Shown piece after piece: positions 23,425-50,501 of a stretch of DNA of 64,000 nucleotides. Origin of the DNA: an uncultured virus (IMG/VR IMGVR_UViG_3300030109_002585) (lineage: Duplodnaviria; Heunggongvirae; Uroviricota; Caudoviricetes); the IMG/VR virus record IMGVR_UViG_3300030109_002585; one strand, given 5' to 3'. The translations under genes and the position numbers were made by a program. The notes beneath the pieces are model-generated. The model saw nothing but the letters and a program-made list of their open reading frames with translations, made no database searches and was not told the origin of the DNA. Within the stretch, counting starts at the first letter, position 1, and each line of letters begins with the position of its first letter.

Positions 23425-24306
23425 TTACCACCAATCGTCTAATTTTTTCTGTATTTTACCGGTTCTTATGCTTGATATATCCCAATCCATAGCCTTGTAA
23501 ATAGGTTCTGCCTTTCTTACTACCTCTTGGGCGTAGTGGTCCCAATCAATTAGATAGCCGTCGAAGTCTGCATAGGTTGTTCCTGAAACATATTCGACTT
23601 GTTTCATTTCGTGTGTTAATGGATTTCTAAAAGAATCATTCACATGTTTTACTTTTACAAATAAGTAAGAGTCATCAAACTCCATATTCTTCTTTTGCCA
23701 TCCATATAAGATACCTGCAATACCTGAACCAAAGGTAGGTTTCTTACCTTCTAGAGTTGTAAAGTATTTACTATCTTTACCACATTTACCACACCATTTG
23801 AAGTTTTCTCTTATAGAGTATTTAGTCTTACATTCGGGACATTTTACAGTAAACCTGTTAGCCCTTAGTCTGCTTCTTTTAATGACTTCACTAGGTTCTA
23901 GTTTACCTTCTCTGACATTACAATAGATAGAATGCAGATATTTATTTATCTCATGAAGAGAACATTGATTCACCCACATAGTTAGCACTTCTGTTTGTAC
24001 TGATTTTGCAAGTTTAGTTTCGCTTACTCTTTTAGCAGTAAAGCCGGTCATAGTAAACTTAGGTTTATCTAACCATTCTCCATCCTCCCAAGATACTAAA
24101 CCAGCATTTCTATTCTTAGTGGTTCCAACACCCAATGCTGAAAAATACTTTTCAAACTCTAATTGAACGGGGTGTTCGTCTAACCCCATAACATTAGGAA
24201 AGTGTTCTCTGACAGATGCTTCTATTTCTTTAATAGCAATTTCAGCAGTTTCCACTGAATCTATTTGAACATAGATTGAATCTGTATGTCCGTAAACTAC
24301 TTTCAT
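23425..24306 (-). CDS. polB: DNA polymerase family B, C-terminal half (split gene)
   Basis: Starts MKVVYGHTDS (a YGDTDS variant); LEFEK, KNR and GF..KR motifs; inserted CPEC/CGKC Zn finger. Confidence 0.9.
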   Translation of the reverse strand: MKVVYGHTDSIYVQIDSVETAEIAIKEIEASVREHFPNVMGLDEHPVQLEFEKYFSALGVGTTKNRNAGLVSWEDGEWLDKPKFTMTGFTAKRVSETKLAKSVQTEVLTMWVNQCSLHEINKYLHSIYCNVREGKLEPSEVIKRSRLRANRFTVKCPECKTKYSIRENFKWCGKCGKDSKYFTTLEGKKPTFGSGIAGILYGWQKKNMEFDDSYLFVKVKHVNDSFRNPLTHEMKQVEYVSGTTYADFDGYLIDWDHYAQEVVRKAEPIYKAMDWDISSIRTGKIQKKLDDWW

Positions 24307-24311
24307 AAATA

Positions 24312-24527
24312 TCACTCCAATGGGTGTTCTATATTTTTATCTCCAAGAGTCCACTTTAAGGCTTTGATTACTCCTTCCAATGCCTTGTAGTTTCTCATGT
24401 GATATATGCGGTCTTTCTTATTAGGACTCTGCATTTTAGTATAGTGCATGTTTTGTTTTCTTTCTGCCTTTTCAAGCATAGCGTGTATATCAGCCCAAGA
24501 CCTATCATAAGTAAAGGGCATAATCAC
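24312..24527 (-). CDS. Hypothetical protein
   Basis: 71-aa ORF between the PolB halves. Confidence 0.55.
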   Translation of the reverse strand: MIMPFTYDRSWADIHAMLEKAERKQNMHYTKMQSPNKKDRIYHMRNYKALEGVIKALKWTLGDKNIEHPLE

Positions 24528-25431: not shown

Positions 25432-26119
25432 ACTTCCATCTCCTTTGCTTTGTAAAAATAATGATTCTTTCTCATATTTTCTGTGTCTTTAAGTGGCTGT
25501 AAGTTTTCTAAGGCCCAACACTTCTTGAAATCTTCATCCTCCATAGATGTAAAATTAAAAGAGGCCACTGGCTTAATGTGGTCTATGTGCCAAAGGCCGT
25601 GATTATTCCAATTCATCCAATCATCAAATTGGTTTTCTAAATGGGTTCTTAATTCATCCATAGTAAAATCTAACCCATTAAGATACTTACTTTTGCGAAT
25701 ACGGATTTTAGGTTTTAGTCCTTTTCTTACTGCATCTTGCACTGCCATATTAAGTTTGTTTTTAGGTTGTTTGTGCCAATTACTAAATGAGCATTTTCTT
25801 GAACAGAAAGTGATGTGTTTAGCCCTTGTTGTTGGGGTGAAGTGTTCTTTACATTCCTTGCATTGAATATCTATCTTAGGTGGTCGCCTTGTTTCACGCC
25901 ATTTCTTTTTGCGTTCCGTAATATATTTCCTATGCTTCTTTTGATATTCAGATTTCTTTATAGCGAGAGCCTCTGCATTTTCCTTTCTCCATTGTTTAGA
26001 GTATTCTGCTCGCTTCGCTTTCCTACATTCTTCACTACAAGTAACATGACTAGAGCGATAGGCTTCAAACTCCTTATTACAAACCACGCATTCTTTCATA
26101 CTTCCATCTCCTTTGCTTT
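25426..26119 (-). mobile_element. HNH insertion bounded by a 26-bp direct repeat
   Basis: tttcatacttccatctcctttgcttt at 25426-25451 and 26094-26119. Confidence 0.7.
25428..26099 (-). CDS. HNH homing endonuclease-like protein with N-terminal Zn fingers
   Basis: WHIDHIKP...NLQPL...N HNH core; two CxxC/CSxxC fingers. Confidence 0.85.
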   Translation of the reverse strand: MKECVVCNKEFEAYRSSHVTCSEECRKAKRAEYSKQWRKENAEALAIKKSEYQKKHRKYITERKKKWRETRRPPKIDIQCKECKEHFTPTTRAKHITFCSRKCSFSNWHKQPKNKLNMAVQDAVRKGLKPKIRIRKSKYLNGLDFTMDELRTHLENQFDDWMNWNNHGLWHIDHIKPVASFNFTSMEDEDFKKCWALENLQPLKDTENMRKNHYFYKAKEMEV

Positions 26120-27757
26120 AAATGCCGCTAATCTAATTGCTTCTCTCGCACTTGCTGTTATACTTGCGGCTAAATCAACATCAGCCCAAGCAAAACCTGT
26201 ATATCCAATGATACCATAAAAGGAAGCCATTAATCTTTTGACAGCCATTTGATTGTTATACCACTTAACATATTCACTTTCATTGTTGGACTCTCTTGCT
26301 TCACGCATGAGCCGCTTATATTCGTTACGGAGTGCCTTTAACTCCAAGACTGATTTAGGCAATAAACCCAATTCATCCGTCTTATAATAAAGCATATCAA
26401 CTTCTGTGACTTCGCTGAAATCTCTAGGTGTTAGAATGTTAACTCCAAACTCCGTAGGTTCAGATGATTTAGTTTCAAATGAAATATTCCGTGCAATCAT
26501 CATAGCAGGGTACAAACCTGCATAATCAAATGCCGCTACATTGACATGCAATCCGTTAGTATTCTCACTCAATGGGTCATATATCATAGCCCCTTTGTAT
26601 GATTTCTTTTCTGCTTTCTTATTGCCTGTTGGTGCTTTCCACTTAGCATTACGCATAAAGTAAATAGAACCCATATGGCTTGCATAGAAACAAGCATCAA
26701 ATGGTGCTTTCAATAATCTTTGAAGTGAAAGTATTGCTTCACTACAATAATTAGTTTCATCTATTTCAACAATCAATTCAACATCTTTTAGAGCATACTG
26801 TAAATAAGTTTCAGTATCTTCTAGCCAAGCCCTACGGTAAAACTCGTTTGGGTCGGGAAACTTCTCTGAAACTAACTTCTTCTTGTTAAGTAAAGATTCA
26901 GATACATAGTCCAAAGATAGAGAAGGTAATGTACCTCTTTGTGAATCATTCCATTGTCTTTCAAAAGCAAGGTCTAATGAGAGGGTAATGCGGCCTCCTA
27001 TCGGCTGTTCTATCGGTGAGAACCCATTCTCACCTTTAGTAAACTTAAAGCCGTTCTTGGCCTTCTTTAGCCCATCCACTCGATTAATCGGTGACATTCT
27101 CTTAGGGTTAATTCCTAATTCACAACATCTTTCTAAGAGTTTAGGTATATCCGCAAAGTGACCAAACCATGCAATTAACATATCAGGGTCTTTGTCTATC
27201 ATAGTATTAATGAAGTGTTCAAGCATATCTCTTTCAGAATTAAAAGCATACATTTGTTTATATTGTAAAGTGGAGAATCCATTAGATTTTCCATTAGGAA
27301 ACCATACCCATTGGTAATATTCTTCGTCATAGTTATCATACATTACAATAGTAGTAATCATGTCGTGATATTCTCCACCTTGTTGCCATTCCATATCCCA
27401 ATACCATTTACGCATTTTGTATTCTGGCATTTCTGAAATAGTATCAACAGCGTATCTAAATGTATAAGGTACATCTGCTTCATATGTTTTCTTAAACTTC
27501 TTTCTAGAAGAGAATGTATCAAATGAGTTATCGACATATACTTTCTTTAGTTTCTCTCCGTCTAGGTTTGTCCATTCACCGTGTTCATATTCAAACTCTC
27601 TTTCTAGATACCTAGAAGGAGCATATGTACGATGTTCAGTTTCATTTTCATTAACGAAGAAATAAGGTTTGAATGCTTCTAATGCAAACTTCTTTTCACC
27701 ATTTTCTCTCCAAGATTTATACACATGCTTACCATCTGAACATCTGCTAATTATCAT
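26096..27757 (-). CDS. polB: DNA polymerase family B, N-terminal half (exonuclease and palm/fingers)
   Basis: WDME ExoI, YALKD ExoIII, FDYAGLYPAMM region II and KRLMASFYG region III. Confidence 0.92.
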   Translation of the reverse strand: MIISRCSDGKHVYKSWRENGEKKFALEAFKPYFFVNENETEHRTYAPSRYLEREFEYEHGEWTNLDGEKLKKVYVDNSFDTFSSRKKFKKTYEADVPYTFRYAVDTISEMPEYKMRKWYWDMEWQQGGEYHDMITTIVMYDNYDEEYYQWVWFPNGKSNGFSTLQYKQMYAFNSERDMLEHFINTMIDKDPDMLIAWFGHFADIPKLLERCCELGINPKRMSPINRVDGLKKAKNGFKFTKGENGFSPIEQPIGGRITLSLDLAFERQWNDSQRGTLPSLSLDYVSESLLNKKKLVSEKFPDPNEFYRRAWLEDTETYLQYALKDVELIVEIDETNYCSEAILSLQRLLKAPFDACFYASHMGSIYFMRNAKWKAPTGNKKAEKKSYKGAMIYDPLSENTNGLHVNVAAFDYAGLYPAMMIARNISFETKSSEPTEFGVNILTPRDFSEVTEVDMLYYKTDELGLLPKSVLELKALRNEYKRLMREARESNNESEYVKWYNNQMAVKRLMASFYGIIGYTGFAWADVDLAASITASAREAIRLAAFKAKEMEV

Positions 27758-37499: not shown

Positions 37500-39038
37500 T
37501 TATTCCTCCAACAATACTGCTACTTCAGTTGATAAGAATAGATTAGCAATAGACATAGCCGCAAGGAAACTATTCTTAGTTACCTTTACAGGGTCAATGA
37601 TTCCTGAATCATACATATTCTCAATTTTACCCGTTAAAGCATTTAGTGAATAATCTTTCCCTACTGTGTAGTTTACTTCTATATCATGAACATAGTCAGC
37701 ATACTTCAAGCCGCTATTATCAAATATACAGGATATTGGCGCACTTAGAGAATCATAAACTAGAGCATGACCTGTCATTGATATATCTAATTCCTGTCTA
37801 GCGATGATAAATGCTTTACCTCCACCAATAACAATACCTTCATCTAAAGCCGCTTTAGTTGCGTTTAACGCATCATCAAGTCTTTCTTTAGTTTCACGCA
37901 TTTCCATTTGTGAAGATGCCCCTATTTGTATAGTAGCAACACCACCGTTAAGTCTAGCAATTCTTCCCTTATATCTCATCTTGTCATATTTATCTTCAGC
38001 AGATTCATATAACTCTTTGAGGCTAAGTATCTTACTTTTCAAATTATCAGCATCTCCATCTCCACCTACAATGATAGTATTATCTTTACCAACCACTATT
38101 TTATCAGCAGTGCCTAATTCATCCATAGTCGCCATAGCAGGGTCGTCTTTACTTTCTTCGTTGAATAGTTTACCACCACAAATAGCAGTGATGTCACTTA
38201 ACTCATCTAATTGAGCATCACCAAAGTTAGGAGCCTTTACTACAACCACTTCAATAGTTTTCTGTAAGACATTCATGATTACATTACTTAGTGCAGTGCC
38301 TTCCATTCCCCTACAAATAATAACTAGAGGTCTTTTGTTTCTAGCGCACATTTCTAACAAAGGAAGTATGTCTTGGAAATGTCTTATAATAAGATTAGAA
38401 GTAAAGATTACAGGATTGTCAAAAGTAGTTTTACCATCTTCTCCGTTACTCATCATGTGACTCAAATAGCCTTCATCAAACTCTAGCCCATCTCTAACTA
38501 TCAGGTTAGTGTTGTGGGATTTAGATTCTTCAACAGTAATCACTCCATCTCTTCCAACCTTATTAATAGCCTCTTGAATTAGTAGCCCCAAGTTAGAATC
38601 ATTGTTAGCCGCAATTGTGGCTACATTTAGAATGTCATCGTCAAGAATAGGTTGAGCCTGTTCAACAAGAGAGGCTAGAATTATCTCTTCTGCTTCTTTG
38701 AACTCATTTTGCAAGTTACGCATATTGTAAAACTCTTGTTCCTTGATGCCTTTAACTAATGCTTGAGCAATAATACAAGCAGTAGTAGTACCATCACCTG
38801 AATTATCTTGTGCTTTACTTGCTAAGTTTTGAACCATCTGAACACCCATTTGAACATACGGGTCTTTACTTGAAATATACTTAGTAATGGTTACTCCGTC
38901 ATTAATCACAACAGGTGGATTGCCTTGCAAAATTACTGTTTTTGCTTGTGGTCCCAATGTTGGTTTTACGGTATTTGCTACCAAATCAACTCCTTCTTGT
39001 AATTTCTGTTTAACTTCTTTTCCATTAATTATCATCAT
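37500..39038 (-). CDS. groEL: Group I chaperonin GroEL
   Basis: TLGP, NDGVTI, GDGTTT, KAPNFGD and IIDPVKV motifs. Confidence 0.95.
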   Translation of the reverse strand: MMIINGKEVKQKLQEGVDLVANTVKPTLGPQAKTVILQGNPPVVINDGVTITKYISSKDPYVQMGVQMVQNLASKAQDNSGDGTTTACIIAQALVKGIKEQEFYNMRNLQNEFKEAEEIILASLVEQAQPILDDDILNVATIAANNDSNLGLLIQEAINKVGRDGVITVEESKSHNTNLIVRDGLEFDEGYLSHMMSNGEDGKTTFDNPVIFTSNLIIRHFQDILPLLEMCARNKRPLVIICRGMEGTALSNVIMNVLQKTIEVVVVKAPNFGDAQLDELSDITAICGGKLFNEESKDDPAMATMDELGTADKIVVGKDNTIIVGGDGDADNLKSKILSLKELYESAEDKYDKMRYKGRIARLNGGVATIQIGASSQMEMRETKERLDDALNATKAALDEGIVIGGGKAFIIARQELDISMTGHALVYDSLSAPISCIFDNSGLKYADYVHDIEVNYTVGKDYSLNALTGKIENMYDSGIIDPVKVTKNSFLAAMSIANLFLSTEVAVLLEE

Positions 39039-39250
39039 TCCACCGCCATTATCTGTTCATAAGGAATATACATTACATTGTTCTCTGTTGTATATTCTAG
39101 TTTATCATTGAAAACTACAATCTTATCTCTAAGCGTTGTGTCACATTGACAATCAAACACCCTTCCTCTGTTAGAGGCTTTTGTTAAGATACCGCTATCA
39201 GTTTTCTTTTCTTCTATTAATACTACAACCCAATTTCCTACTGCTTTCAT
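39035..39250 (-). CDS. groES: Co-chaperonin GroES
   Basis: KAVGNWVVV...KKTDSGIL...QIMAVE; adjacent to groEL. Confidence 0.8.
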   Translation of the reverse strand: MKAVGNWVVVLIEEKKTDSGILTKASNRGRVFDCQCDTTLRDKIVVFNDKLEYTTENNVMYIPYEQIMAVE

Positions 39251-39606: not shown

Positions 39607-39891
39607 TCATTCTTCTTCACCGCCAATTTTAATCCATCCCATATTTAGGTCTGCATCAATAAAAGTATGAACATGAGTTTCATAAAACTCATCTAGAATA
39701 TCATCCTTATATCCTCTCTTTCCCCAATAAACACCTTTAGTTCTTTTTTGGTTGTTATCATTAGGATGCCTTCTCTTATGGTTAGCCTGTCTTTCTTTAA
39801 GAGTTATCTTGCCTTGAGGCGTTCTAACTTCAACGATAGAAACCTCTCCATATTTGTTTCTTACTTCTTTAAATGTAGTATTATATTTCAT
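39607..39891 (-). CDS. Hypothetical protein
   Basis: 94-aa ORF. Confidence 0.5.
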   Translation of the reverse strand: MKYNTTFKEVRNKYGEVSIVEVRTPQGKITLKERQANHKRRHPNDNNQKRTKGVYWGKRGYKDDILDEFYETHVHTFIDADLNMGWIKIGGEEE

Positions 39892-40421
39892 TCTTCTTCA
39901 CTCCAACCTTCACCGCATTTTTCATTTTCATCATATCCATAAGTGCCTTCTCCCCATCTTTGTACTCTTTCAAATCCATAATCACGGAAAATCATTAATT
40001 GTTTTGGCTTGGTATTTTCCCAAGAACCATAATGTCCTCTTCCGCCTAATACATAGGCAGTTTTCATAAGTGGTTCCCAAATAGATACTGTCCTAATATC
40101 AGTCCCACTGAAATAAGCAGAACCGAATGGATGCGTATGAATCCAACACTTAATCGGAAGTTTCATTCCAACAGGGTCAATCTTAAAATCAACATAGCCT
40201 GATGTTCCCGAAGAAACATGTAAGGCATCATTAGCATCAATTACTACTTGTACTTCTAATCCTTTAAGAATCTTAGTTGAAGCAAACCAAATAGCATCAT
40301 GAAAGTTTGTTGCTGATACATCACCATCATAGGATTCTTTAATAGTTTCCTCGACTAATGTGTTATTCCATTGTGTAATTTCTCCTACTGCCATATCCCA
40401 ATTAAATTCCATCTTCATCAC
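39888..40421 (-). CDS. JAB/MPN+ metalloprotease (deubiquitinase-like)
   Basis: WIHTHPFGSAYFSGTD matches HxH-x7-S-x2-D; upstream Glu in LEVQV. Confidence 0.85.
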   Translation of the reverse strand: MMKMEFNWDMAVGEITQWNNTLVEETIKESYDGDVSATNFHDAIWFASTKILKGLEVQVVIDANDALHVSSGTSGYVDFKIDPVGMKLPIKCWIHTHPFGSAYFSGTDIRTVSIWEPLMKTAYVLGGRGHYGSWENTKPKQLMIFRDYGFERVQRWGEGTYGYDENEKCGEGWSEEE

Positions 40422-41493
40422 CTTTTAGTTTATTTAGTTTCTTTTCGGCCTTAGCAATTTTCTTGTCAATCTTTGCTTGTTTCTTAGCCGCTTTTCGTGC
40501 CTTTCTTCGCTCTGAGCGAGAAGGTTTCTTTTCTCGTAGTGAATCGCTCACTTCATTCATTACAGAATTAGTTATTTCTGTCGCTCGCATAATCAAATCC
40601 TCGCTGTTAGAATATACGAAATCAAAGTGCTTTTCAACATGCTTTGCGATAACCCAATAAGGTCTTCCGTATCTTTCCCTTGCTTCATCAATATTCAGAT
40701 GATGGAAATAAACCAATACATCTAAAGATTCTTCTTCAGCCCACGGCTTTTGAGTATTAGGGTAACTAGATGTTCCAAAATTCAAAGTAATAGGTTTGTT
40801 TTGTTTCTTATGTTCATTTTCATAATGTTCCCTAGTACCTTGTAGTGGTTCGTCTGCCAATAGATGTTTTTCAACTTCTAACAAATGTCCCATATCATTA
40901 TTTGCAATATATTCCTGTGCTTGATTGTGTCTTAATACCCTATTCCATCTAGAAGTAACTGCCTTTTGTGTTCTATTTTCAATCATAGGCCAACCTTTTT
41001 TCTCCTTCTTCCATTCAATAAGAATAGCATCTTCTTCAGGAGTCCATCTAGACGATGTAGCAAAGTTATTCCCTCTTCTTCTATCTTCTTGTACCGCTTT
41101 CTTTGGCTTTTCTTTACTTAACATAGCAATCATGTCACCTGCAAGTTTCTTAGTAAACTGACCATTTCTTGCCGCAACCATTAATTCATCAAGAAGAGTT
41201 TCCCTTTCTTCTCTTGTACCTTCAGGTAAACTCAAACTAGCAACATACTTGCATTGTCGTCTAGTAGCAGGGTCTTCTGTCCAAACTACCTTTTTCTGTG
41301 GTTTAGGTGATGGTTCTGGCTTTTTAACCTTTAAATCGTATTTCTTTGATAGTCTAGCAATAGTCGATGAATAGTTAGATTCACTTCTTTTGGGATGGCC
41401 TTCAGCATACATTTCAAATGCTATTGTACCCCATGTTTTTCCTTCTTCTCTCTTCTTTATTGCTAATGCTATTTCTTCTGATTTCCATTTCAT
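40402..41493 (-). CDS. Multi-HTH/Myb(SANT)-like DNA-binding protein
   Basis: KWKSEE, RWTPEEDAIL...RTQKAVTSRW and PWAEEE repeats. Confidence 0.6.
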   Translation of the reverse strand: MKWKSEEIALAIKKREEGKTWGTIAFEMYAEGHPKRSESNYSSTIARLSKKYDLKVKKPEPSPKPQKKVVWTEDPATRRQCKYVASLSLPEGTREERETLLDELMVAARNGQFTKKLAGDMIAMLSKEKPKKAVQEDRRRGNNFATSSRWTPEEDAILIEWKKEKKGWPMIENRTQKAVTSRWNRVLRHNQAQEYIANNDMGHLLEVEKHLLADEPLQGTREHYENEHKKQNKPITLNFGTSSYPNTQKPWAEEESLDVLVYFHHLNIDEARERYGRPYWVIAKHVEKHFDFVYSNSEDLIMRATEITNSVMNEVSDSLREKKPSRSERRKARKAAKKQAKIDKKIAKAEKKLNKLKGDEDGI

Positions 41494-41495
41494 AT

Positions 41496-41708
41496 TTATG
41501 CCTCCAATTCTTCATTCATTTCTATTTTAAATTCCCATGTGTGGAATACTTCATGGCCTCCTAAAAAGCCACCTGCTTCTCTAATAGGGCCAATGTATCT
41601 TGACCCACAAACTTGACAGTAAACAAGAACAATTCTTTCTTCATAATAAGAACCTTTCTCGTCACTAAATTCGACTATATCTCCAATATTATCTTCGGTG
41701 TATTTCAT
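41496..41708 (-). CDS. Small Zn-finger protein
   Basis: CQVC...HEVFH. Confidence 0.5.
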   Translation of the reverse strand: MKYTEDNIGDIVEFSDEKGSYYEERIVLVYCQVCGSRYIGPIREAGGFLGGHEVFHTWEFKIEMNEELEA

Positions 41709-42265
41709 ACATTCACGACCATAAAGGATTTTACTTCTTCTTCATTAAACCAACGCTGAATCCATTGTGCGCCAATACCTGCAATTGCGGCTTGCATGAA
41801 ATGAACATTTTTATTAGTACCATCCCATGAATCACCCTGACAACTGAATGAGCCTTCCGGCCCTGCTAATAATGTATCGTACATTTTAGGGTCTGCCTGA
41901 TAAGAAATTAAAGCCGCATTACGACCTTGCGCTCTCAAATCTAACCACTTAATATCTGAATTATACATTGTTTTCCTAAGTCCTATATTATCAACACAAC
42001 TGATAACTAAATCAAAATTAGCCATTTGCTGTGCAGTTAGAATAGGAAACTTGGAACCTGTTAATACAGTCTTGTATCTATTAGCCATAGCCTGAACCTT
42101 AAATTCACCTACTTCCTCTTTTGTAAAGTTTTGATAGGTAATATTTTTTGTTTCAACCTTGTCAGGGTCGGCAATTGTAATTCTATACATATCGACTTTA
42201 TCTAATAAAGGTACTAGGAAACTCCCAATACCGCCTGTTCCAATAACTAATATTTTTCTTTTCAT
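41705..42265 (-). CDS. ThiF/E1-like ubiquitin-like activating enzyme
   Basis: GTGGIGS, DPDKVETKNITYQ, DLVISCVDN..R and WLDLR motifs; candidate catalytic Cys in FSCQ. Confidence 0.9.
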   Translation of the reverse strand: MKRKILVIGTGGIGSFLVPLLDKVDMYRITIADPDKVETKNITYQNFTKEEVGEFKVQAMANRYKTVLTGSKFPILTAQQMANFDLVISCVDNIGLRKTMYNSDIKWLDLRAQGRNAALISYQADPKMYDTLLAGPEGSFSCQGDSWDGTNKNVHFMQAAIAGIGAQWIQRWFNEEEVKSFMVVNV

Positions 42266-42266
42266 T

Positions 42267-42614
42267 CTAATCTCTCCATAATTCTATCATTTTGTTATAT
42301 TCTTCTTCACCTAAATGATTAAAAACATACGCCTCATTCTCTTTGTAGTTAAGGGGTAAGTTTTGATAATCAAGATGAGTTAATTTTCTCCCAATATTTT
42401 CTTCTATTTCTTTTTGAGTAGCAAGACGATGTAATGGCTTTTTACTCGCTTCTTCCCAGATACTATCCTTTACTACAAATAACTCAAACTTTCCATCATC
42501 CCATCTTTCTTGTCGTAATTTTTGCAATATTTTATCTTGCATATAACGACTAAGAGTTTCATTTTTAAACATTTCTTCATCTCTCATTCTAATTTCTCCA
42601 AATTTGCATTCCAT
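42267..42614 (-). CDS. Hypothetical protein
   Basis: ORF in the operon. Confidence 0.5.
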   Translation of the reverse strand: MECKFGEIRMRDEEMFKNETLSRYMQDKILQKLRQERWDDGKFELFVVKDSIWEEASKKPLHRLATQKEIEENIGRKLTHLDYQNLPLNYKENEAYVFNHLGEEEYNKMIELWRD

Positions 42615-43219
42615 CTTGTATTGTACGAATCTATTTCTTTGTTGTATTTTGTTTTGAAATGGTCTTTAGGCCACCATTCAGGCATTCTGTTTTGTCTCCA
42701 TTCAGCAAACTTCCATTTACCTTCAAGGTAATAATGTCTGTAAGACTTGATTACAAAGTCCCAATCGGGAATCCTGTTATCTTTAACTAATCTATACTTG
42801 TCATCCATAGCAATAGTTACAGGAGTAGCCCACCAAGGGTCAGCCTGAAAATCAATTGTATATGCTATATCTAGTATTCTAGATTGTGAGCCATGCTTCT
42901 TATTGTAACGATGAGTATATTCATCACAAAGAGCGCATCCGTGCGAGTATAACCATCGAGTATTGTTAGGGTTTTGTCTAGCCCATATTGTTGAAGGATG
43001 ATTTAACATAGCAGGTTTCATTAGGTTTGAACCAATATCTTTGTGAAACTCTTTTAATTGTGCAAGAGTAGGTTCTTCACCATAATGCTCAATATAGTCA
43101 AAATACAAAGCATTAGTATGTAACATCTGACAGGTTTCAGTTGGCATCTTAATTACATGCTTATCCAGCATTTGTTCTGCCGCTTCTTGTGGATTTCTTG
43201 ATAGTGCAAATATATTCAC
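42584..43219 (-). CDS. Pyrimidine-dimer DNA glycosylase-like protein
   Basis: MNIF...DKHVIKMPTETCQML...NHPSTIWAR...YRHYY. Confidence 0.7.
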   Translation of the reverse strand: MNIFALSRNPQEAAEQMLDKHVIKMPTETCQMLHTNALYFDYIEHYGEEPTLAQLKEFHKDIGSNLMKPAMLNHPSTIWARQNPNNTRWLYSHGCALCDEYTHRYNKKHGSQSRILDIAYTIDFQADPWWATPVTIAMDDKYRLVKDNRIPDWDFVIKSYRHYYLEGKWKFAEWRQNRMPEWWPKDHFKTKYNKEIDSYNTRWNANLEKLE

Positions 43220-43401
43220 AGTCTTAGCCTCCTGATTGAAGTTTCGTATGCTTTGGAAGCATACATGCCTTGAGATACTAATTGTTTGAATATCTCAATT
43301 CTCTTTTCTTCTCTTCTAACTAGCCTTTGTAAAAACTTTGGCTTGTAAAATCTATGCTCACTGGCTGGTATCTTGTCTTTCATTCTCATTTGTATCACCA
43401 T
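43216..43401 (-). CDS. Small basic hypothetical protein
   Basis: 61-aa ORF. Confidence 0.4.
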   Translation of the reverse strand: MVIQMRMKDKIPASEHRFYKPKFLQRLVRREEKRIEIFKQLVSQGMYASKAYETSIRRLRL

Positions 43402-44269
43402 ATATTATATTTCGGCCTCTTATATCGGCCATTTTGCTATATCCAAGCATTTGAATTATTTTCTTACTAGTCTTTCCTATTGCGGAAAGAGAAATGCCTG
43501 TCGATTCAGATATGTCGGATTTATTAATCCCTGAATATCTAAATATGTTTACTGCTAACCAACATACACTTGCGTAGTATGCTCTTGGTTTATTGTAACA
43601 ATGAGACTCTGTTATAGGGTCTAGTTTTGTTAATAAATCAGTAGCGTTTGAATAAAACATTACATCATCTGTAATCTTATTACATGTTTGTTTCATCATG
43701 TATGATGGGTCAGCCCCGTATAGTACATTTTTATTCATGAAGTGATTAATCATCTTCTGCACTAATCTATTTACTATTTTAATAGAACATGAGTATTCAG
43801 AACATAAATCCTTTAGAGGAAGAGGGGTTCTATTTTCCTTTAGAACATAGTACACAGTAGCAGTACACCTTGCTTCTAAGCGGATATTACCGAACAGCCC
43901 TTTTCTTTGAGCCTGTAAATAGCATTCTTCCACTCTATCCTTCAAAGGATGATTGACTTGTATAGAAGATAATATCATATTACAAGTCTGTATTCCAGCA
44001 ACAATATGTCTAGGAGTCAGAGAGTTATTGCCCCTCTTATTGAATTTGGAAGAACCTGCTCCTGTTATTACTGAACCCAATTTACCATTATCGGCTGAAT
44101 GAGTCACTTCTCCATTATTCACAAACCTAACAGTCTCTTCAAACAATTCAGTAACTACGACTAAGCCGCAATCACTACATTCTGTTTCTCCCATTCTTTC
44201 ATTGTAATTAAATACTAAACTTCCACATTCACTGCATTTCATCCATATCAACCCTATACTCATTTTCAT
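43358..44269 (-). CDS. tfb: Transcription initiation factor TFIIB/TFB homolog
   Basis: CSECGS...GETECSDCGLV Zn ribbon followed by two cyclin-like repeats. Confidence 0.85.
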   Translation of the reverse strand: MKMSIGLIWMKCSECGSLVFNYNERMGETECSDCGLVVVTELFEETVRFVNNGEVTHSADNGKLGSVITGAGSSKFNKRGNNSLTPRHIVAGIQTCNMILSSIQVNHPLKDRVEECYLQAQRKGLFGNIRLEARCTATVYYVLKENRTPLPLKDLCSEYSCSIKIVNRLVQKMINHFMNKNVLYGADPSYMMKQTCNKITDDVMFYSNATDLLTKLDPITESHCYNKPRAYYASVCWLAVNIFRYSGINKSDISESTGISLSAIGKTSKKIIQMLGYSKMADIRGRNIIYGDTNENERQDTSQ

Positions 44270-45506
44270 TACTATTTAAATATCTATTAATTGTATTGAC
44301 TCTTTTAACTGTAAGAACATCGTTTAATAACGCTAATGCTCTCGCTACGAATTGGTCGCCTACTGAAGAACCACCTGTCATATTATCAATACAAATTGGT
44401 CCTTTCCATTTAGGTTCTCTAACTGGTTTAGGAAGGCTTTCTTCAAGATTATCCATCAATTCCGTCGTTGGCATATCAGGGTTTTCTTTCACAAACAATT
44501 CATTTCTTTCTTTTATCATTGCTTCTGTTTCTGCCCAAGCATCTAACTGTTCTTTGTATGTTTCTTGTGTAACAGGAGTTGACCATACATAGGTGGAAAC
44601 CGCTTGAATGTCAGACTTGTATTGATTATCTGTTAACTTCCAATCCCAACCGGTTCCTCTAACTAACATAGTTTGAGGCTTTCCATCTTTAGAGAATGAA
44701 ACCCTAATTCTATCAGGGTATTTTGCGGCAATATCTTTAACTAAAGTTATAGCCCTTGCTTCAACAATGTTCTGTTGCCTGTTCTGCTTCAAAAACTCTT
44801 TCATGACTTTCATATCAGAAAGTTTTGGCTTCTCTTTCATCGTTCTTTCATACAACAATTCAGGAGAAACGAATGTCCACTTCTTGCTGTTTTTCTTACC
44901 ATTTAGATAAAAACCACAATAGGAATCTAATTCCCTGAATGTCATTGTTCCCCAAACGCCATCTGCTATCTCAATAGCAATTTCATTATCGGAAATCTGT
45001 TGACAATTTAATCTAACTTGTATTTTGGTAAAGTCGTCGAAGAAATGAAAGGGTATTCTATTTTCTATACAATATTTTACATTCTCAGGCATTGACAATG
45101 AAGAGTATAACGATTTCAATAATTTACCTGTATCTTTCTCAAATACAGACTTGAGTGTTAGACGGGCTAAAGCATTAGCCACTGTTGCAAGACTTTCTGT
45201 TGAACCATTAATGCTCAATCTATTCTTGGTTCTTCCAATCGCTACTAGGCATCCTCCAATACTAATTACTGAAGAAAAATCAGTGTGCGGAAGTGCGAAA
45301 TATCTGTATGTTCTTCTAGAGTTAGTTCTTCGCTTTAAGTTACTAGTCCAAAAAGCAACAAGACTCGCATGTATTGGGTCTTTCTCATTTCTTTCTCCGT
45401 AAAGAGAAACATTTTGTCTATAAGGAATCATATCTGAAGATATTTCAGTTGTCCATTCTGCTCCTGAATCATCAGGTTTTCTTATTCTTACTTGTAATTT
45501 ATTCAT
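44229..45506 (-). CDS. Hypothetical protein; C-terminal GPICID resembles the E2/UBC active-site region
   Basis: 425 aa; KGPICIDN compared with the E2 GxICLD consensus. Confidence 0.35.
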   Translation of the reverse strand: MNKLQVRIRKPDDSGAEWTTEISSDMIPYRQNVSLYGERNEKDPIHASLVAFWTSNLKRRTNSRRTYRYFALPHTDFSSVISIGGCLVAIGRTKNRLSINGSTESLATVANALARLTLKSVFEKDTGKLLKSLYSSLSMPENVKYCIENRIPFHFFDDFTKIQVRLNCQQISDNEIAIEIADGVWGTMTFRELDSYCGFYLNGKKNSKKWTFVSPELLYERTMKEKPKLSDMKVMKEFLKQNRQQNIVEARAITLVKDIAAKYPDRIRVSFSKDGKPQTMLVRGTGWDWKLTDNQYKSDIQAVSTYVWSTPVTQETYKEQLDAWAETEAMIKERNELFVKENPDMPTTELMDNLEESLPKPVREPKWKGPICIDNMTGGSSVGDQFVARALALLNDVLTVKRVNTINRYLNSNENEYRVDMDEMQ

Positions 45507-45631
45507 ATTATCACATCACATAACTATTATCTTCTATTTTATCCATGCACTCTTTGTGCATTTCTTTCTTCATATCTTCAGGGAGAAGTAATTGTCCTCC
45601 GCAAATCCTACATTTAGTAGCGACTCTTTTC

Positions 45632-46030
45632 TTATACGACCACGCACTCTCTGTATATTCGGGATTCTTTTCTTTCATTATTCCACCTATCCAATATTTC
45701 ACATACTTTACAATAACTATTACAATTTTTATTATGGTATTGTATTGCTTCTAATCTTTCATAGAAGTATTTCTTAGTATATGCTTTGAACCCCATATCC
45801 ACTGCTTCGTTGTTTTCCCACAACACTGCATAGATAGTTTGCCAAAACCTAAACCTTTTGTCTTTTTCAAGAACAATATTATCACATGCGTTGATTGCTA
45901 ATTTTATTTTTTTAATTGCTTGGTTAGACCAATCGAAGGTCTTAACAATTGACTTTAATTCGTCATATGTTAAGTTTCTGATTCGTCTATCCATGTTAAT
46001 CACCTTAGATTTCACATGCTCCGCCAGCAC
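45632..46030 (-). CDS. Hypothetical protein
   Basis: ORF; likely start MDRRIR. Confidence 0.45.
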   Translation of the reverse strand: MLAEHVKSKVINMDRRIRNLTYDELKSIVKTFDWSNQAIKKIKLAINACDNIVLEKDKRFRFWQTIYAVLWENNEAVDMGFKAYTKKYFYERLEAIQYHNKNCNSYCKVCEILDRWNNERKESRIYRECVVV

Positions 46031-47873
46031 AAGCCAATTCGCCTGTTAAGTTAGTATCATCCTGTTCTTCAATAACCTTAGTTAAGTCAATCTTCTTTAG
46101 ATTAACCATCATCTCATCGTAGGTCTTTTTATCAATTGTTTCAAATGGTGCTTGTTTGTAAGAACCACCATCATAAGGCAATACAGAAAGTCCATTGTAA
46201 TAATGTCTATTCATCCATAGCCATTCTCCCACATCATCCCATTCATCCTCCTTAACAGATAGAGTAGCGGAGACATTGTGAGTATTCAATCCATCAACAT
46301 GCCCTGTTCTAACCCATCTAATGCTGAAATTCTTGACCCTCTCCATCAAATCAAATACTGATTCATGCCGAGTTATCGAATCATCAGGTGATTTTTGAGG
46401 TATAGAAATAACAGCCTGTTCTTCAGGATTAAAGTATTCATCCTCAACTAATTCAGGATGATTATTTAATAGATAGGAATAAATTGCTTCGTTCTTACCT
46501 ACTCTAATTCTTCTAATGTAATAGTCATCATGCCATGCGTGAATACCACTACTTGTACCTAATACAAGAGAAGTAGTTCCGGCAGGTTTTACACAAGTAA
46601 TTCTTGCCGCAGGTTTTACACCAATAATCTTAGCAATTTTCTTATTCTCCTGTTTCGCCGCAAAGGAAGCCATTTCTAAATCTAGATGTTCGACTACATT
46701 TGAAGCAATACCTGTCATTGATACACCTAACAAAGAATCCTTTTCAGTATTCTTTCTCCATATCTCTCTTAGATAATGGAAATCAGTATATCCGGCTTGT
46801 AGTGTTCCTAAGAATGCCGCCGCCTTAACTCTTGATTCTAAATCTGCTTGGTCTTCAACATCAGAAGCATTGACTTCTGTTAAGTTACAGAATTGATATG
46901 GTCTTAGTGCTATTTCACAACAAGGATTAGTACCCCAATCTTTGTCATTACTGAAATAAACAGCAGGTTCACCACTGCCACTATGTTGTATTCTTTCCCA
47001 TAATCCCATAAAGAAATCTCTTGTTACTCTATGTCTAAGAATAACTGCTGAATTATTTGCTCTGCCTCTTTGTGGGTTATTCTCCCACCAAGTACCTGCT
47101 TTGCAACTAATCATCTTTGAATCGTCTGCGCTAAATAAACTAATCATAGCGGCTCTGCGAATACCTCCGGCTAATACTGCATCAGCCAAATAACACATAA
47201 TATCATGTGCTTCTATTGATTCTAATTTAGAGCCATTAGTTTTATTTTGAAGTATTCCTTCTATTTTAACTAAACATTCCCTTAATGGCTGAAAACCCGG
47301 TGCTTTTCCACCACTAGTCTTTAATAGACTTCCTTTAGGTCTAATATCAGAATAATCAAAAATAGGACTACTACTCCTAATACCGGTATAACATTCCAAA
47401 AGGATTCTAATTGAATCAGCCCATCCTTCGATAGAATCGCTAATAAGATACCTGCGTTTTCTTTCGGGATTAGGTTGAATGATTTCTGGTAATTGTTCAA
47501 TATGATGTCTTTGGACTGAATATCCAACCCCCGTTCCACCGAGAAGTAAGAACATAGCCTCGCTAAAAGATAAAAGGGAATCAATAGGCATATAAGCACA
47601 ATTATAGACCCTATTTGGACTAATTTCCACAGGCTTACCCCCAAACTGCATAGAACGCATAGAAGGGAGGACTTTCTTTGTTTTAACGAATTTTTCATAT
47701 AATTCACCTATTTCACTTGTTAATTCTGGATATTTTTTAATGTGCATGTTTCTATTTCTAGTAACTATTTCATTCCATGTTTCTCTTCTTTTCTTTTCAG
47801 GCAAATACCTTGCATATTTCATATGCACAGTAATGTCTGATAATGTCTCGATTGCTGTATTCATAGTTAACAC
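46005..47873 (-). CDS. nrdJ: Class II (B12-dependent) ribonucleotide reductase
   Basis: YNC, TNPCCEI, TCVKPAGTTS and C-terminal CAGGACEI. Confidence 0.93.
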   Translation of the reverse strand: MLTMNTAIETLSDITVHMKYARYLPEKKRRETWNEIVTRNRNMHIKKYPELTSEIGELYEKFVKTKKVLPSMRSMQFGGKPVEISPNRVYNCAYMPIDSLLSFSEAMFLLLGGTGVGYSVQRHHIEQLPEIIQPNPERKRRYLISDSIEGWADSIRILLECYTGIRSSSPIFDYSDIRPKGSLLKTSGGKAPGFQPLRECLVKIEGILQNKTNGSKLESIEAHDIMCYLADAVLAGGIRRAAMISLFSADDSKMISCKAGTWWENNPQRGRANNSAVILRHRVTRDFFMGLWERIQHSGSGEPAVYFSNDKDWGTNPCCEIALRPYQFCNLTEVNASDVEDQADLESRVKAAAFLGTLQAGYTDFHYLREIWRKNTEKDSLLGVSMTGIASNVVEHLDLEMASFAAKQENKKIAKIIGVKPAARITCVKPAGTTSLVLGTSSGIHAWHDDYYIRRIRVGKNEAIYSYLLNNHPELVEDEYFNPEEQAVISIPQKSPDDSITRHESVFDLMERVKNFSIRWVRTGHVDGLNTHNVSATLSVKEDEWDDVGEWLWMNRHYYNGLSVLPYDGGSYKQAPFETIDKKTYDEMMVNLKKIDLTKVIEEQDDTNLTGELACAGGACEI

Positions 47874-48286
47874 CTAAATTTACTGGCTTTTGGTAATTCA
47901 AATAGAGTTGAAAAGGATTCAAGCCATTCACCTTTTTTACTAATTACCCACTCTTTTTCTTCTAAGAATTGCCATTCATCGAATTGATGAAAAGCATTTG
48001 GATTATCTTCTAATAGATTACTAATAGAAGTATATCGTTTATTATTGAATATGATTATACTTTGTCCACAAGCATAGAAAAGACCATGCTTACCACGGCC
48101 TAATACATAGCCATGAGGATAAAAGTCTGGCTTGAAACAAGCCATATTTTCTTTAATTACGGGTTCAGTTAACTGCCACCCATTAATATCAAACATTATT
48201 TTAAGCGCATCGGGAGACATAAAATGCTTCAGATTCATGATTACCACACTGCAAAAAGGGGAGAATAGTTTAGGTATAAAAAGCAA
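47867..48286 (-). CDS. Hypothetical protein
   Basis: ORF; likely start MNLKHF. Confidence 0.5.
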   Translation of the reverse strand: MLFIPKLFSPFCSVVIMNLKHFMSPDALKIMFDINGWQLTEPVIKENMACFKPDFYPHGYVLGRGKHGLFYACGQSIIIFNNKRYTSISNLLEDNPNAFHQFDEWQFLEEKEWVISKKGEWLESFSTLFELPKASKFRC

Positions 48287-48336
48287 AAACCTAAACCATT
48301 CCCCCCAACAGGAGCCTAGTTAAAACTGTATTTAGT

Positions 48337-48540
48337 TTAACCGCCAACGATAGCAGGTGTCAAATCGACATCTGTAACATTAGACCAATCAATTTCAGAA
48401 ATTGATTCCCTTGCTACCATTTCCCCATTGATAAAAACCCAATGAGTCGGGTGCGTGTCTATCTGTTCAATGACTTCTTCAGAAGCCAACATCAATTCAG
48501 TGTGTCCTGTTTCGTTTAAAATTGTAATCTTAATCATCAT
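48337..48540 (-). CDS. Ubiquitin-like (ThiS/MoaD/SAMP-type beta-grasp) protein with C-terminal GG
   Basis: 67 aa; IKITIL...VFINGE...VDLTPAIVGG*. Confidence 0.8.
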   Translation of the reverse strand: MMIKITILNETGHTELMLASEEVIEQIDTHPTHWVFINGEMVARESISEIDWSNVTDVDLTPAIVGG

Positions 48541-48573
48541 ACCATCTCCGTTCTGTTCTCTCTATGTTCTCCG

Positions 48574-48584
48574 CATATATAAGG
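48574..48584 (-). promoter_or_regulatory. Archaeal TATA-like promoter (CCTTATATATG) upstream of the Ubl gene
   Basis: Identical 11-mer also at 55265-55275, upstream of gene 54733..55215. Confidence 0.55.
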
Positions 48585-50198: not shown

Positions 50199-50501
50199 TC
50201 ATATTCCCCCTGCTACCGTGAACAGTTGTGCTATATTTTTGTGGGCTATAAACCCTTCAATGGTACTCAGGTAATCTTGAGTATTATTGATGTACTTGCT
50301 GTGGTTGACCATGAGACTAGCCACTGTTTGTGCTAGTTTCTGATTACTCAAACCTGATAGTAATTTAGACAACTCAAATGCTAGATGTTCTCTATAATTA
50401 TCATCCATCATACATGAGATACATTCCTTCTTAATCATACAATCGTGTTGATGGTCAGGTTCAATTACATATCCTTTACCTTTACATTCTAGACATTCCA
50501 T
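50199..50501 (-). CDS. Zn-finger hypothetical protein
   Basis: CLECKGKG...CISC. Confidence 0.5.
   Translation of the reverse strand: MECLECKGKGYVIEPDHQHDCMIKKECISCMMDDNYREHLAFELSKLLSGLSNQKLAQTVASLMVNHSKYINNTQDYLSTIEGFIAHKNIAQLFTVAGGI

Follow-up and report, generated by a model that had tools for sequence, protein, structure and literature searches.

Ubiquitin-like tagging of proteins in prokaryotes is known from the archaeal SAMPs and, more recently, from bacterial antiphage systems. The sulfur-carrier systems QbsE/QbsD/QbsC and CysO/Mec likewise combine a JAB peptidase, a ubiquitin-like protein (Ubl) with a C-terminal tail, and an E1 enzyme. SAMP/UbaA/HvJAMM1 of Haloferax volcanii and Urm1/Uba4 share with the locus described here a beta-grasp modifier ending in Gly-Gly (GG), a single non-canonical E1 and a JAMM peptidase; they work without a UBC E2, and none was recognised here. 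This locus lies in a 64,000-nucleotide stretch of DNA from an uncultured virus (IMG/VR record IMGVR_UViG_3300030109_002585), referred to below as the window, which belongs to a tailed archaeal virus of the magrovirus type. The original prediction, made from the sequence alone, had placed a Ubl, an E1 and a JAB peptidase on one strand within 9 kb, and the three open reading frames (ORFs) are indeed there, all on the minus strand (Table 1). We consider it very probable that they form one system of Ubl activation and processing, because the Ubls of relatives carry precursor tails after GG, Ubl-E1 and E1-JAB fusions occur, large phages encode the three genes as an operon, and magroviruses conserve them. 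By analogy, the module most probably works like SAMP/UbaA and Urm1/Uba4, although for the whole chain, protein conjugation included, we see the chances as evenly balanced. Of the tagging and detagging system originally proposed for this virus, a single ubiquitin-like system is thus supported, and conjugation is the part that we infer.

The viral module also differs from SAMP/UbaA in several respects. UbaA orthology is not given for its E1, which falls some 80 residues short of the usual ThiF/MoeB length and lacks the four zinc cysteines. No sequence similarity of its Ubl to the ThiS, MoaD or SAMP families could be detected. A fourth conserved protein accompanies the set, and the host lineage keeps a separate canonical E1. 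The module is best filed with the prokaryotic Ubl/E1/JAB kind, outside all named families tested.

At the sequence level the Ubl stands apart: it matched no Pfam or NCBIfam family at E ≤ 0.1, ThiS and MoaD included, and its profile returned only chance-level rows against the sequences of the PDB. A search of 5.8 billion clustered proteins gathered a family of 321 clusters at E ≤ 1e-3, of which the 120 listed are 70–100% identical. The fold is clearer. An AlphaFold2 model built from a 38-row alignment (mean pLDDT 91.9, pTM 0.77) has the element order strand-strand-helix-strand-strand-(helix)-strand, that is, a confidently predicted beta-grasp, as had been suspected for this small protein ending in PAIVGG. 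In a Foldseek comparison with the PDB, almost all of the best 50 rows were ubiquitin, NEDD8, ISG15, SUMO or MoaD (E 5e-3 to 2.4e-2, prob 0.84–1.00; none at E ≤ 1e-3). VIA-align was led by three MoaD chains (Z 6.3, 5.8 and 5.7; ~64 residues, 3.1–3.2 Å), the best of them 3rpf_C (Z 6.3, rmsd 3.2, 64 residues aligned), followed at Z 5.0–5.4 by Fubi, SUMO1, a bacterial Ubl (8tyx), ubiquitin and TtuB, the last at Z 5.0. These Z values are middling, and the model does not separate a ThiS/MoaD-type from a ubiquitin-type protein.

The C-terminus is more telling. The window Ubl stops at GG and so is already in the mature form, with no tail. Among the 120 listed homologues, 41 also stop exactly at GG and 79 have further variable residues, and (I/V)VGG is constant apart from one VRG. 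The 16 Ubl genes of related loci follow the same pattern (six stop at GG, nine have two extra residues and one has eight), with tails after VGG of 1–8 residues in relatives. Because the GG is constant and the residues beyond it are unconstrained, the C-terminus reads as that of a precursor; a terminal Gly-Gly is present either directly or after a presumed processing step. Mean column identity of the family in magroviruses is 65%. Upstream of the window gene, a putative promoter, TTATATAT, lies ~38 nt before the Ubl ATG, and a GGAG lies 6–9 nt before it.

The E1 belongs to the ThiF superfamily (Pfam PF00899; E 9.1e-15, 54.9 bits against a cut-off of 28.1). Narrower assignments fail: the NCBIfam equivalogs (ThiF, MoeB, UbaA, PRTRC ThiF, cap2_3) match its N-terminal 60–100 residues only and fall far below their cut-offs, with 27.1 bits against 450 for UbaA (NF047750) and 43.6 bits against 144.75 for the PRTRC-system ThiF (TIGR03736). 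A profile of 13 magrovirus E1s, run against 1.84 billion representative proteins, found 8951 matches at E ≤ 1e-3, 394 at E ≤ 1e-10 and 12 at E ≤ 1e-30. Many of the best 150 are 180–205 residues long and align end to end, so compact E1s make up a family and are no truncated forms. When 30 diverse members, 27–58% identical to the window protein, were aligned, G9, G11, G12, G14, D33, D35, Y44, K56, D92, N93, R97, D109, R111, C142 and Q143 proved invariant. D33, D35, K56, D92, N93, R97, D109 and R111 among them would serve adenylation, judging by the alignment. Cys142, in an S-C-Q motif, is invariant both in the 13 magrovirus proteins and in 30/30 members of the wider family. Within magroviruses the mean column identity of the E1 is 80%.

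Comparison of the E1 profile with Escherichia coli MoeB (K-12 record; hhalign prob 98.2, E 3e-13, 175 columns) aligned Cys142 with MoeB Cys187 and Cys90 with Cys128, in an alignment that was forced global and whose least certain part is the cysteine loop. The Cys187 position is that of the reactive cysteine of ThiF, UbaA and Uba4. MoeB Cys172, 175, 244 and 247, the zinc ligands, have no counterpart in the viral E1, and the viral protein ends before the last two. The protein contains no CxxC pair, and with it no canonical zinc site of the ThiF/MoeB/UbaA type, and no rhodanese domain. The earlier description of a compact ThiF/E1 with GxGGxG and adenylation motifs, no zinc CxxC pairs and a lone 'SC' cysteine is therefore borne out by the Pfam match, the invariant residues and the MoeB alignment. 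The same alignment rules out the idea that Cys142 is a remnant of the first CxxC.

The JAB protein scores 21.3 bits against Pfam Prok-JAB (PF14464; E 2.6e-4), below the cut-off of 25. Its JAMM motif is complete: Glu56 and H95-x-H97-x7-S105-x2-D108 are invariant in 13/13 relatives. When the family profile was compared with solved structures, only JAMM deubiquitinases were found, AMSH-LP being the best (E 9.2e-4), with further matches to STAMBP, Sst2, an archaeal Rpn11-like protein and Rpn11; the similarity is limited to the motif region. An MPN+ protease with an intact HxH-x7-S-x2-D motif, as first read from the window, is what these results describe.

Whether the three genes belong together was judged first on 18 E1-bearing magrovirus contigs, whose E1s are 58–76% identical. 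JAB is present in 18/18 and Ubl in 16/18 of these loci, and in the two loci without Ubl the contig is cut less than 2 kb upstream of E1. Three divergent magrovirus-like contigs add E1 and JAB in 3/3 and Ubl in the one that is long enough. The co-occurrence across magroviruses for which the original prediction had called thus holds, with a weight limited by block-wide synteny: the ribonucleotide reductase (RNR), the TFIIB-like gene, the chaperonin and others co-occur as faithfully across the same 18 loci, and because the whole block is syntenic, co-occurrence within magroviruses alone is weak evidence. Such a pattern is what would be expected if Ubl, E1 and JAB were unrelated passengers that co-occur only through magrovirus synteny. 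We find this hardly credible in view of the fusion proteins, the phage operon, the host E1-JAB operons with their matching phyletic pattern, and Ubl tails that would need a GG-specific peptidase. Magrovirus-type contigs with RNR, protein X (the fourth conserved protein), E1, JAB and chaperonin genes also turn up in bacterial metagenome-assembled genomes (MAGs) of the species-representative genome collection, namely L019, L020 (MAG titled Maricaulis sp.) and L021 (Altibacter sp.), most likely through mis-binning.

The fusions came from the profile search of 1.84 billion representatives. All are metagenomic proteins: P0185 and P0218 are Ubl-E1, P0263 is Ubl-Ubl-E1 and P0261 is E1-JAB, and the fused Ubl domains share the motifs of the viral Ubl. 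Single-protein scans of viral contigs with the fusion proteins found nothing.

A second set of viral contigs, scored with strict local profiles, comprised 80 loci: 51 with Ubl, E1 and JAB, 14 with Ubl and E1, 13 with E1 and JAB, and two with E1 only. All 13 E1-JAB loci start within 4.8 kb upstream of E1, which probably puts the site of the Ubl gene off the contig; magrovirus-type loci short of the full triad are in general truncated near E1. A different kind of virus, uncultured large marine phages, accounts for 15 of the 80 loci. In 15/15 of these phage-type contigs (11 distinct) the order is Ubl (74–88 aa), JAB (141–169 aa) and compact E1 (195–204 aa) on one strand; the genes overlap or abut in several loci, and in others a single ORF is inserted between Ubl and JAB. 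These contigs are up to 210 kb long and carry a sigma-70, a class II RNR and a PolA-like polymerase, the last read from sequence. Two of the phage-type JABs exceed the Prok-JAB cut-off (51.1 and 40.1 bits). Ten of the 11 distinct phage Ubls end at GG and one at GG-Cys. The phage and magrovirus Ubl families are recognisably related (hhalign prob 97.3, E 1.8e-11), the JAB families match in the motif region only (prob 31), and the phage-type E1 has no close relative among 50,697 GenBank phage records.

Magroviruses and these large phages share a similar set of genes around the module: class II RNR, an ORF of ~120–150 aa, protein X, Ubl, JAB, E1 and a basal transcription factor, the latter being sigma-70, with the PolA-like polymerase after it, in the phages and TFIIB-like in the archaeal virus (window 43358–47873 compared with L080 2090–11125, L036, L064, L074, L083, L087, L088, L096 and L102). 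The gene content suggests that the block was exchanged across the divide between bacterial and archaeal viruses.

The presumed hosts are Poseidoniales, and one Ubl homologue carries the source name 'Poseidoniales virus YSH_150918 gp024'. A MAG titled 'uncultured Candidatus Poseidoniales archaeon' has a 3.5 kb contig that carries, behind genes for a GDP-mannose dehydratase and a glycosyltransferase, a compact E1 of 222 aa whose gene overlaps that of a 183-aa JAB. A protein of 150 aa, built of two Ubl repeats, is encoded at another place in this MAG. Across 121 genomes of its order, which are incomplete MAGs in which some short contigs may be mis-binned viruses, the E1 subfamily is present in 67 (E ≤ 1e-25; listed best E 1.5e-53 to 1e-113) and the Ubl in 57 (E ≤ 1e-5). 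As we read the two tables, each of the 57 genomes with a Ubl also has the E1, leaving 10 with E1 only and 54 with neither. In many of these genomes Ubl and E1 are separated by hundreds of kilobases or located on different contigs. In 4/4 chromosomal loci inspected, JAB directly follows E1 in a conserved neighbourhood without sulfur genes. The host Ubl genes consist of two or three tandem repeats, each ending in (V/I)GG (AG in one genome), with 3–8-residue linkers and a short C-terminal cap; one genome has a Ubl-Ubl-E1. In their arrangement, these tandem Ubls resemble polyubiquitin. A canonical UbaA/MoeB-like E1 is found once in each of the 121 genomes (E ≤ 1e-40, ~140–325 bits), which makes the compact system accessory and not housekeeping.

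The magrovirus JAB and Ubl profiles match the host proteins (JAB E 3e-18 to 5e-23, Ubl down to 3e-16) much more strongly than the phage ones. This strength of match, the presence of a homologous system in roughly half of the host-order genomes, and the scatter of the three viral genes over 9 kb instead of one operon would suit viral parts that plug into, drain or reverse the host poly-Ubl/E1-JAB system, for instance by stripping the tag from host targets or by charging the host Ubl, and make no conjugates of their own. Such interference appears quite unlikely to us. All three viral parts are strongly conserved (80% for E1, 65% for Ubl), as a self-sufficient system would need, and 54/121 host genomes showed no system to interfere with, though these are incomplete MAGs. 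Moreover, in a maximum-likelihood tree of 38 E1 domains with MoeB as the outlier, the magrovirus (support 52/99), host (80/94) and phage (99/90) E1s each lie on one side of a branch, as groups of their own.

A further protein follows the module across these contexts. Protein X, encoded between Ubl and E1, is present in 18/18 related magrovirus loci and belongs to no Pfam family, and phage-type loci carry a 684–792 aa protein directly upstream of Ubl. Pairwise BLAST between X and the phage proteins gave no significant match (E 0.14 and 0.24), but the two family profiles, compared by hhalign, do match: 269 columns are aligned, in the C-terminal part of the phage protein (prob 94.2, E 1.2e-7). 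In the host order, the viral X profile finds weak matches to the same C-terminal stretch in 8/121 genomes, and in two of them the gene adjoins the module. L156, a 2.8 kb contig, encodes in succession X (430 aa), a Ubl whose tail has 8 residues, E1 and JAB; its protein falls in an ESM Atlas cluster labelled mostly viral from very few records, and the contig may be that of a virus. L158, a 451 kb contig, combines a Ubl, two paralogues of X and a fused E1-JAB in a stretch of 6 kb. A 376-aa ORF beside this host-type module was considered as a TFB and gave no Pfam hit. Over 14 sequences from all contexts, the shared X domain keeps an invariant Cys-Ile pair, an Asp, an Asn-Asp pair and a Thr. Protein X thus accompanies the module in viruses and phages as well as in host loci, and it is probably part of the system.

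Protein X is also the only candidate for a conjugating or adaptor (E2-like) factor. For the possible E2 named without coordinates in the original prediction, no UBC-like protein was recognised. The surroundings of the invariant cysteine of protein X resemble a UBC active site by eye, but kinship with UBC found no support, as Pfam scans of 12 and 10 members (E ≤ 10) list no UBC or Prok-E2, three profile searches of PDB sequences find nothing relevant, and the Atlas gives no support. ORF139, which lies next to Ubl in 16/16 loci and is replaced by another gene in the divergent L021, was rejected as an E2: its confident model (pLDDT 93.7) matches no UBC fold, with a best Foldseek E of 0.87 and a best VIA-align Z of 4.0 (Rv3902c, among 48,161 chains), and it has no conserved internal cysteine. 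Its conserved C-terminal Arg-Cys overlaps the start codon of the RNR gene. One could go further and propose a four-part conjugation system common to Poseidoniales, magroviruses and large marine phages, made up of a 'GH'-motif Ubl precursor (tailed, tandem or fused to the E1), a minimal zinc-less E1 with one catalytic cysteine, a JAB maturase and deconjugase, and the cysteine-bearing X in place of a UBC-type E2/E3. In the viruses the genes are always found next to the class II RNR of the virus and not far from a basal transcription factor, and the system would serve, during takeover, to tag proteins of replication or transcription, be they of the host or of the virus. We regard this full version as unlikely. 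The host poly-Ubl/E1-JAB homologue and the fourth conserved protein are new relative to the original prediction.

Taken in order, the proposed steps would be as follows. The Ubl would be made either as the mature GG form, as in the window virus, or, in relatives and hosts, as a precursor that has a short tail, is repeated in tandem or is fused to the E1. The JAB metallopeptidase would cut after Gly-Gly and expose the carboxylate, whereupon the E1 would bind ATP and adenylate it, and the acyl group may pass to Cys142. Most likely, the Ubl would next be attached to lysines on proteins of the virus or the host with no classical UBC E2 involved, as in SAMP/UbaA and Urm1/Uba4 and possibly with the help of protein X, and the JAB would also remove the tag. 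A predicted E1:Ubl complex, one of the checks suggested at the outset, lends this scheme weak support, with a score of 0.34 against 0.00 for the best control, at least 95% of contacts agreeing between runs, and a partner pLDDT of at least 83. The mark that it passes is reached by 116/157 solved complexes and by 2/215 mismatched pairs, and at scores ≤ 0.60 by 18 of those 157 and by both passing mismatches; the pass may reflect mere likeness to solved E1-Ubl complexes. As to function, a role in redirecting host proteolysis or in countering Ubl-based immunity, both raised in the original prediction, is speculation; bacteria mostly lack proteasomes, and the phage versions live in bacteria.

Several observations weigh against the conjugation reading. 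Folds and motifs, precursor architecture and genetic linkage are the observed part of the case; adenylation, the thioester, conjugation and its targets all lie beyond this gene anatomy, and these we infer. Pfam found no UQ_con or Prok-E2 match in the 82 ORFs of the window or in the 122 ORFs of a complete relative (G003, a terminally repeated related genome of 90,867 bp), and the Ubl family has no conserved lysine, so Ubl chains are unlikely. Co-occurrence counts are inflated by shared descent, magroviruses being syntenic throughout, and the presence and absence of the system in hosts may follow one clade. The deep forks of the E1 tree among the virus, host and phage groups lack resolution, so that no donor among them can be named. 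A JAB, a tailed Ubl and an E1 are also the known make-up of a sulfur carrier, and in the predicted structure the nearest matches of the viral Ubl are MoaD sulfur carriers, within ~1 Z of ubiquitin and SUMO. Finally, in two of three host loci the poly-Ubl gene directly follows a gene of the 2-thiouracil desulfurase family (PF04463): in G007 (L135 2065–3024) and G010 (L152 6498–7619) it lies between a PF04463+DUF1722 gene and an RFC small-subunit gene on the same strand. A link to thionucleobases through this neighbour is possible.

These last points bear on a different use of the same genes, in which the JAB would expose GG, the E1 would adenylate it and a host persulfide donor would make a thiocarboxylate, with no protein tagged; the product would feed a thio-modified nucleoside, nucleobase or cofactor needed in infection. 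We hold such a sulfur carrier to be possible, if rather unlikely. Cys142 stands at the MoeB Cys187 position, and ThiF forms an acyl-disulfide at its corresponding cysteine. The position of the viral module among genes of nucleotide and DNA metabolism (RNR, ligase, polymerase and DenV), the lack of a recognised E2 and the missing lysine would also suit this use, and ThiS/MoaD-like-JAB-E1 triads beside sulfur-assimilation genes are described in the accessible part of Iyer et al. 2006 (PMC1779556). Against it, a Pfam search of the same 82 window and 122 relative ORFs found no acceptor or donor family (ThiG, MoaE, PP-loop ATPase, PAPS reductase, rhodanese or cysteine desulfurase), which extends to a complete genome the earlier remark that the window lacks thiamine, Moco and tRNA-thiolation enzymes. 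PF01507 and PF01171 were found in 0/5 related records and in all 14 control genomes. No sulfur acceptor or donor lies beside the host E1-JAB operon either, although the host may supply such partners. The E1 has neither a rhodanese domain nor a zinc site, the tandem poly-Ubl and Ubl-Ubl-E1 precursors are typical of conjugated modifiers, the hosts already have their canonical UbaA/MoeB-like E1 in 121/121 genomes, and the desulfurase neighbour is missing at the third host locus, L153.

Other described systems share parts of this make-up. In the CysO/Mec+/MoeZ and QbsE/QbsD/QbsC operons, the same three protein types occur and JAB trims the tail after GG, according to the accessible sections of the catalogue of bacterial Ubl/JAB/E1/E2 operons by Iyer, Burroughs and Aravind (2006; PMC1779556). 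Those operons are placed there beside sulfate-assimilation, cysteine or siderophore genes, whereas no sulfur enzyme was found in the virus or beside the host E1-JAB operon, and tandem and E1-fused Ubls are prominent in the present module. The phage lambda/T1 tail proteins I (Ubl) and K (JAB-NlpC/P60), covered in the same sections, likewise pair a phage Ubl with a C-terminal Gly and a JAB, but they lack an E1 and belong to the tail module, whereas the genes described here, with their E1, lie among replication and transcription genes. CBASS Cap2/Cap3, Bil and 6A-MBL/Bub resemble the module in their E1 domain, their JAB or deubiquitinase and, for Bil and Bub, their Ubl, and two structures of bacterial Ubls, 8tyx and 8tyz, match the viral Ubl in fold (Z 5.2–5.4). 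However, they use an E2, often fused to the E1, and the present module is virus-encoded and not only cellular. The PADLOC E1-E2 models match only residues 2–68 of the viral E1 (best E 5.6e-11), well short of a full-length Cap2 (E1-E2)/Cap3, and no PADLOC model matches the JAB or the Ubl.

Among viruses, the Asgard 'Nidhogg' virus (bioRxiv 10.1101/2021.07.29.454249) also encodes E1-like domains in its replication clusters; the accessible part of the preprint gives three ThiF/E1-like genes and states that these are the first ubiquitin-system genes in archaeal viruses, but reports no Ubl with GG beside them. Two crAss-like phage proteins, likewise encoded within replication clusters and annotated as 'thiamine biosynthesis protein' and 'E1 enzyme family protein', matched the compact-E1 profile in a small local search (E 5.6e-17 and 4.3e-16), at 26–33% identity to the window E1. 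In the two crAss-like loci, no protein matched the Ubl profile, and the JAB profile gave only a weak match to the upstream gene (E 5.7e-4, 16 proteins). At L108 2554–4663 (Bacteroides phage DAC15) and L109 2601–4657 (bajarodcaudo virus 1), a 284–336 aa protein has a C-terminal compact-E1 match with a cysteine in the same region.

The words 'ubiquitin', 'ThiF' and 'JAB' do not occur in the main texts of PMC5434244, PMC10160649 and PMC11706807 or in two supplements of PMC5434244. We found no literature linking magroviruses with ubiquitin, and a search for Poseidoniales with ubiquitin-like proteins returned only an unrelated preprint. In a literature search with most subscription journals outside its scope, no published virus-encoded Ubl-E1-JAB set, compact zinc-less E1 family or Poseidoniales poly-Ubl was found.

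Apart from the module, the 82 ORFs of the window include genes for replication (a family-B DNA polymerase in two parts, an RFC-like clamp loader and an ATP-dependent ligase), the class II RNR, the TFIIB-like protein, the GroEL-type chaperonin and a tail tube protein. A megablast of the region against GenBank phages gave no match, and the nearest related record (G001, a 25.6 kb fragment) is without E1. The features of the module and its immediate surroundings are given in Table 1.

Table 1. Features of the Ubl-E1-JAB region, in window coordinates
Feature	Position	Strand	Remarks
Ubl	48337..48540	-	67 aa, C-terminal PAIVGG
Putative Ubl promoter/ribosome-binding region	48546..48582	-	TTATATAT at 48582-48575, GGAG at 48549-48546; motifs read from sequence
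Protein X	44229..45506	-	425 aa; C-terminal domain with invariant Cys-Ile...Asp...Asn-Asp...Thr
Compact E1	41705..42265	-	186 aa; Pfam ThiF; Cys142 in S-C-Q
JAB/JAMM (MPN+) metallopeptidase	39888..40421	-	177 aa; predicted cut after Ubl GG
ORF139	47867..48286	-	conserved neighbour directly downstream of Ubl; outside module

Two small ORFs near the E1 gene were discarded as partners: ORF115 (42267–42614) is present in 0/18 related loci and ORF70 (41496–41708) in 2/18. ORF70 encodes 70 aa with a CxxC...HxxxH pattern and overlaps the E1 stop; it is 78–80% identical in the two loci and present in 2/3 divergent ones, and may be a mobile small zinc-binding gene. Upstream of Ubl, a 100-aa ORF (50199–50501), kept there in most related loci, starts with Cys-x-x-Cys-x-Gly-x-Gly, like a DnaJ-type zinc finger. 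A 71-aa ORF (39035–39250) directly upstream of the chaperonin was considered as a GroES and gave no Pfam hit and no match to PDB GroES. The DNA polymerase is divided into ORFs 23425–24315 and 26096–27757 with other ORFs between them, and is split in the same way in the complete relative, where an HNH endonuclease gene separates the halves.

The JAB and the proteins that follow it share an acidic ending: the JAB, ORF94 and ORF90 end in Glu-Glu-Glu and the chaperonin in Leu-Glu-Glu (ORFs at 39607, 39247 and 37500). Nearly all JABs of relatives end in the same Glu-Glu-Glu. At the end of the window JAB (39888–39900) the codons are GAA GAA GAA TGA, the stop being overlapped by the ATG of the next ORF, and a purine-rich run ahead of a coupled start codon may explain the shared endings.

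Magroviruses are, according to the accessible part of PMC5434244, among the most abundant viruses of the surface ocean, so that Ubl machinery is carried here by very abundant viruses themselves. The minimal E1, with ~186–205 residues and no zinc site, marks a lower limit of what an E1 needs and is tractable for structural work and enzymology. The tandem poly-Ubl in a euryarchaeal order, outside Asgard and Caldiarchaeum, bears on the origin of polyubiquitin-style precursors, and a module common to archaeal viruses, their hosts and bacterial phages makes a case for gene flow across domains. If the output of the system were sulfur transfer instead, it would point to an unknown thio-modification by marine viruses.

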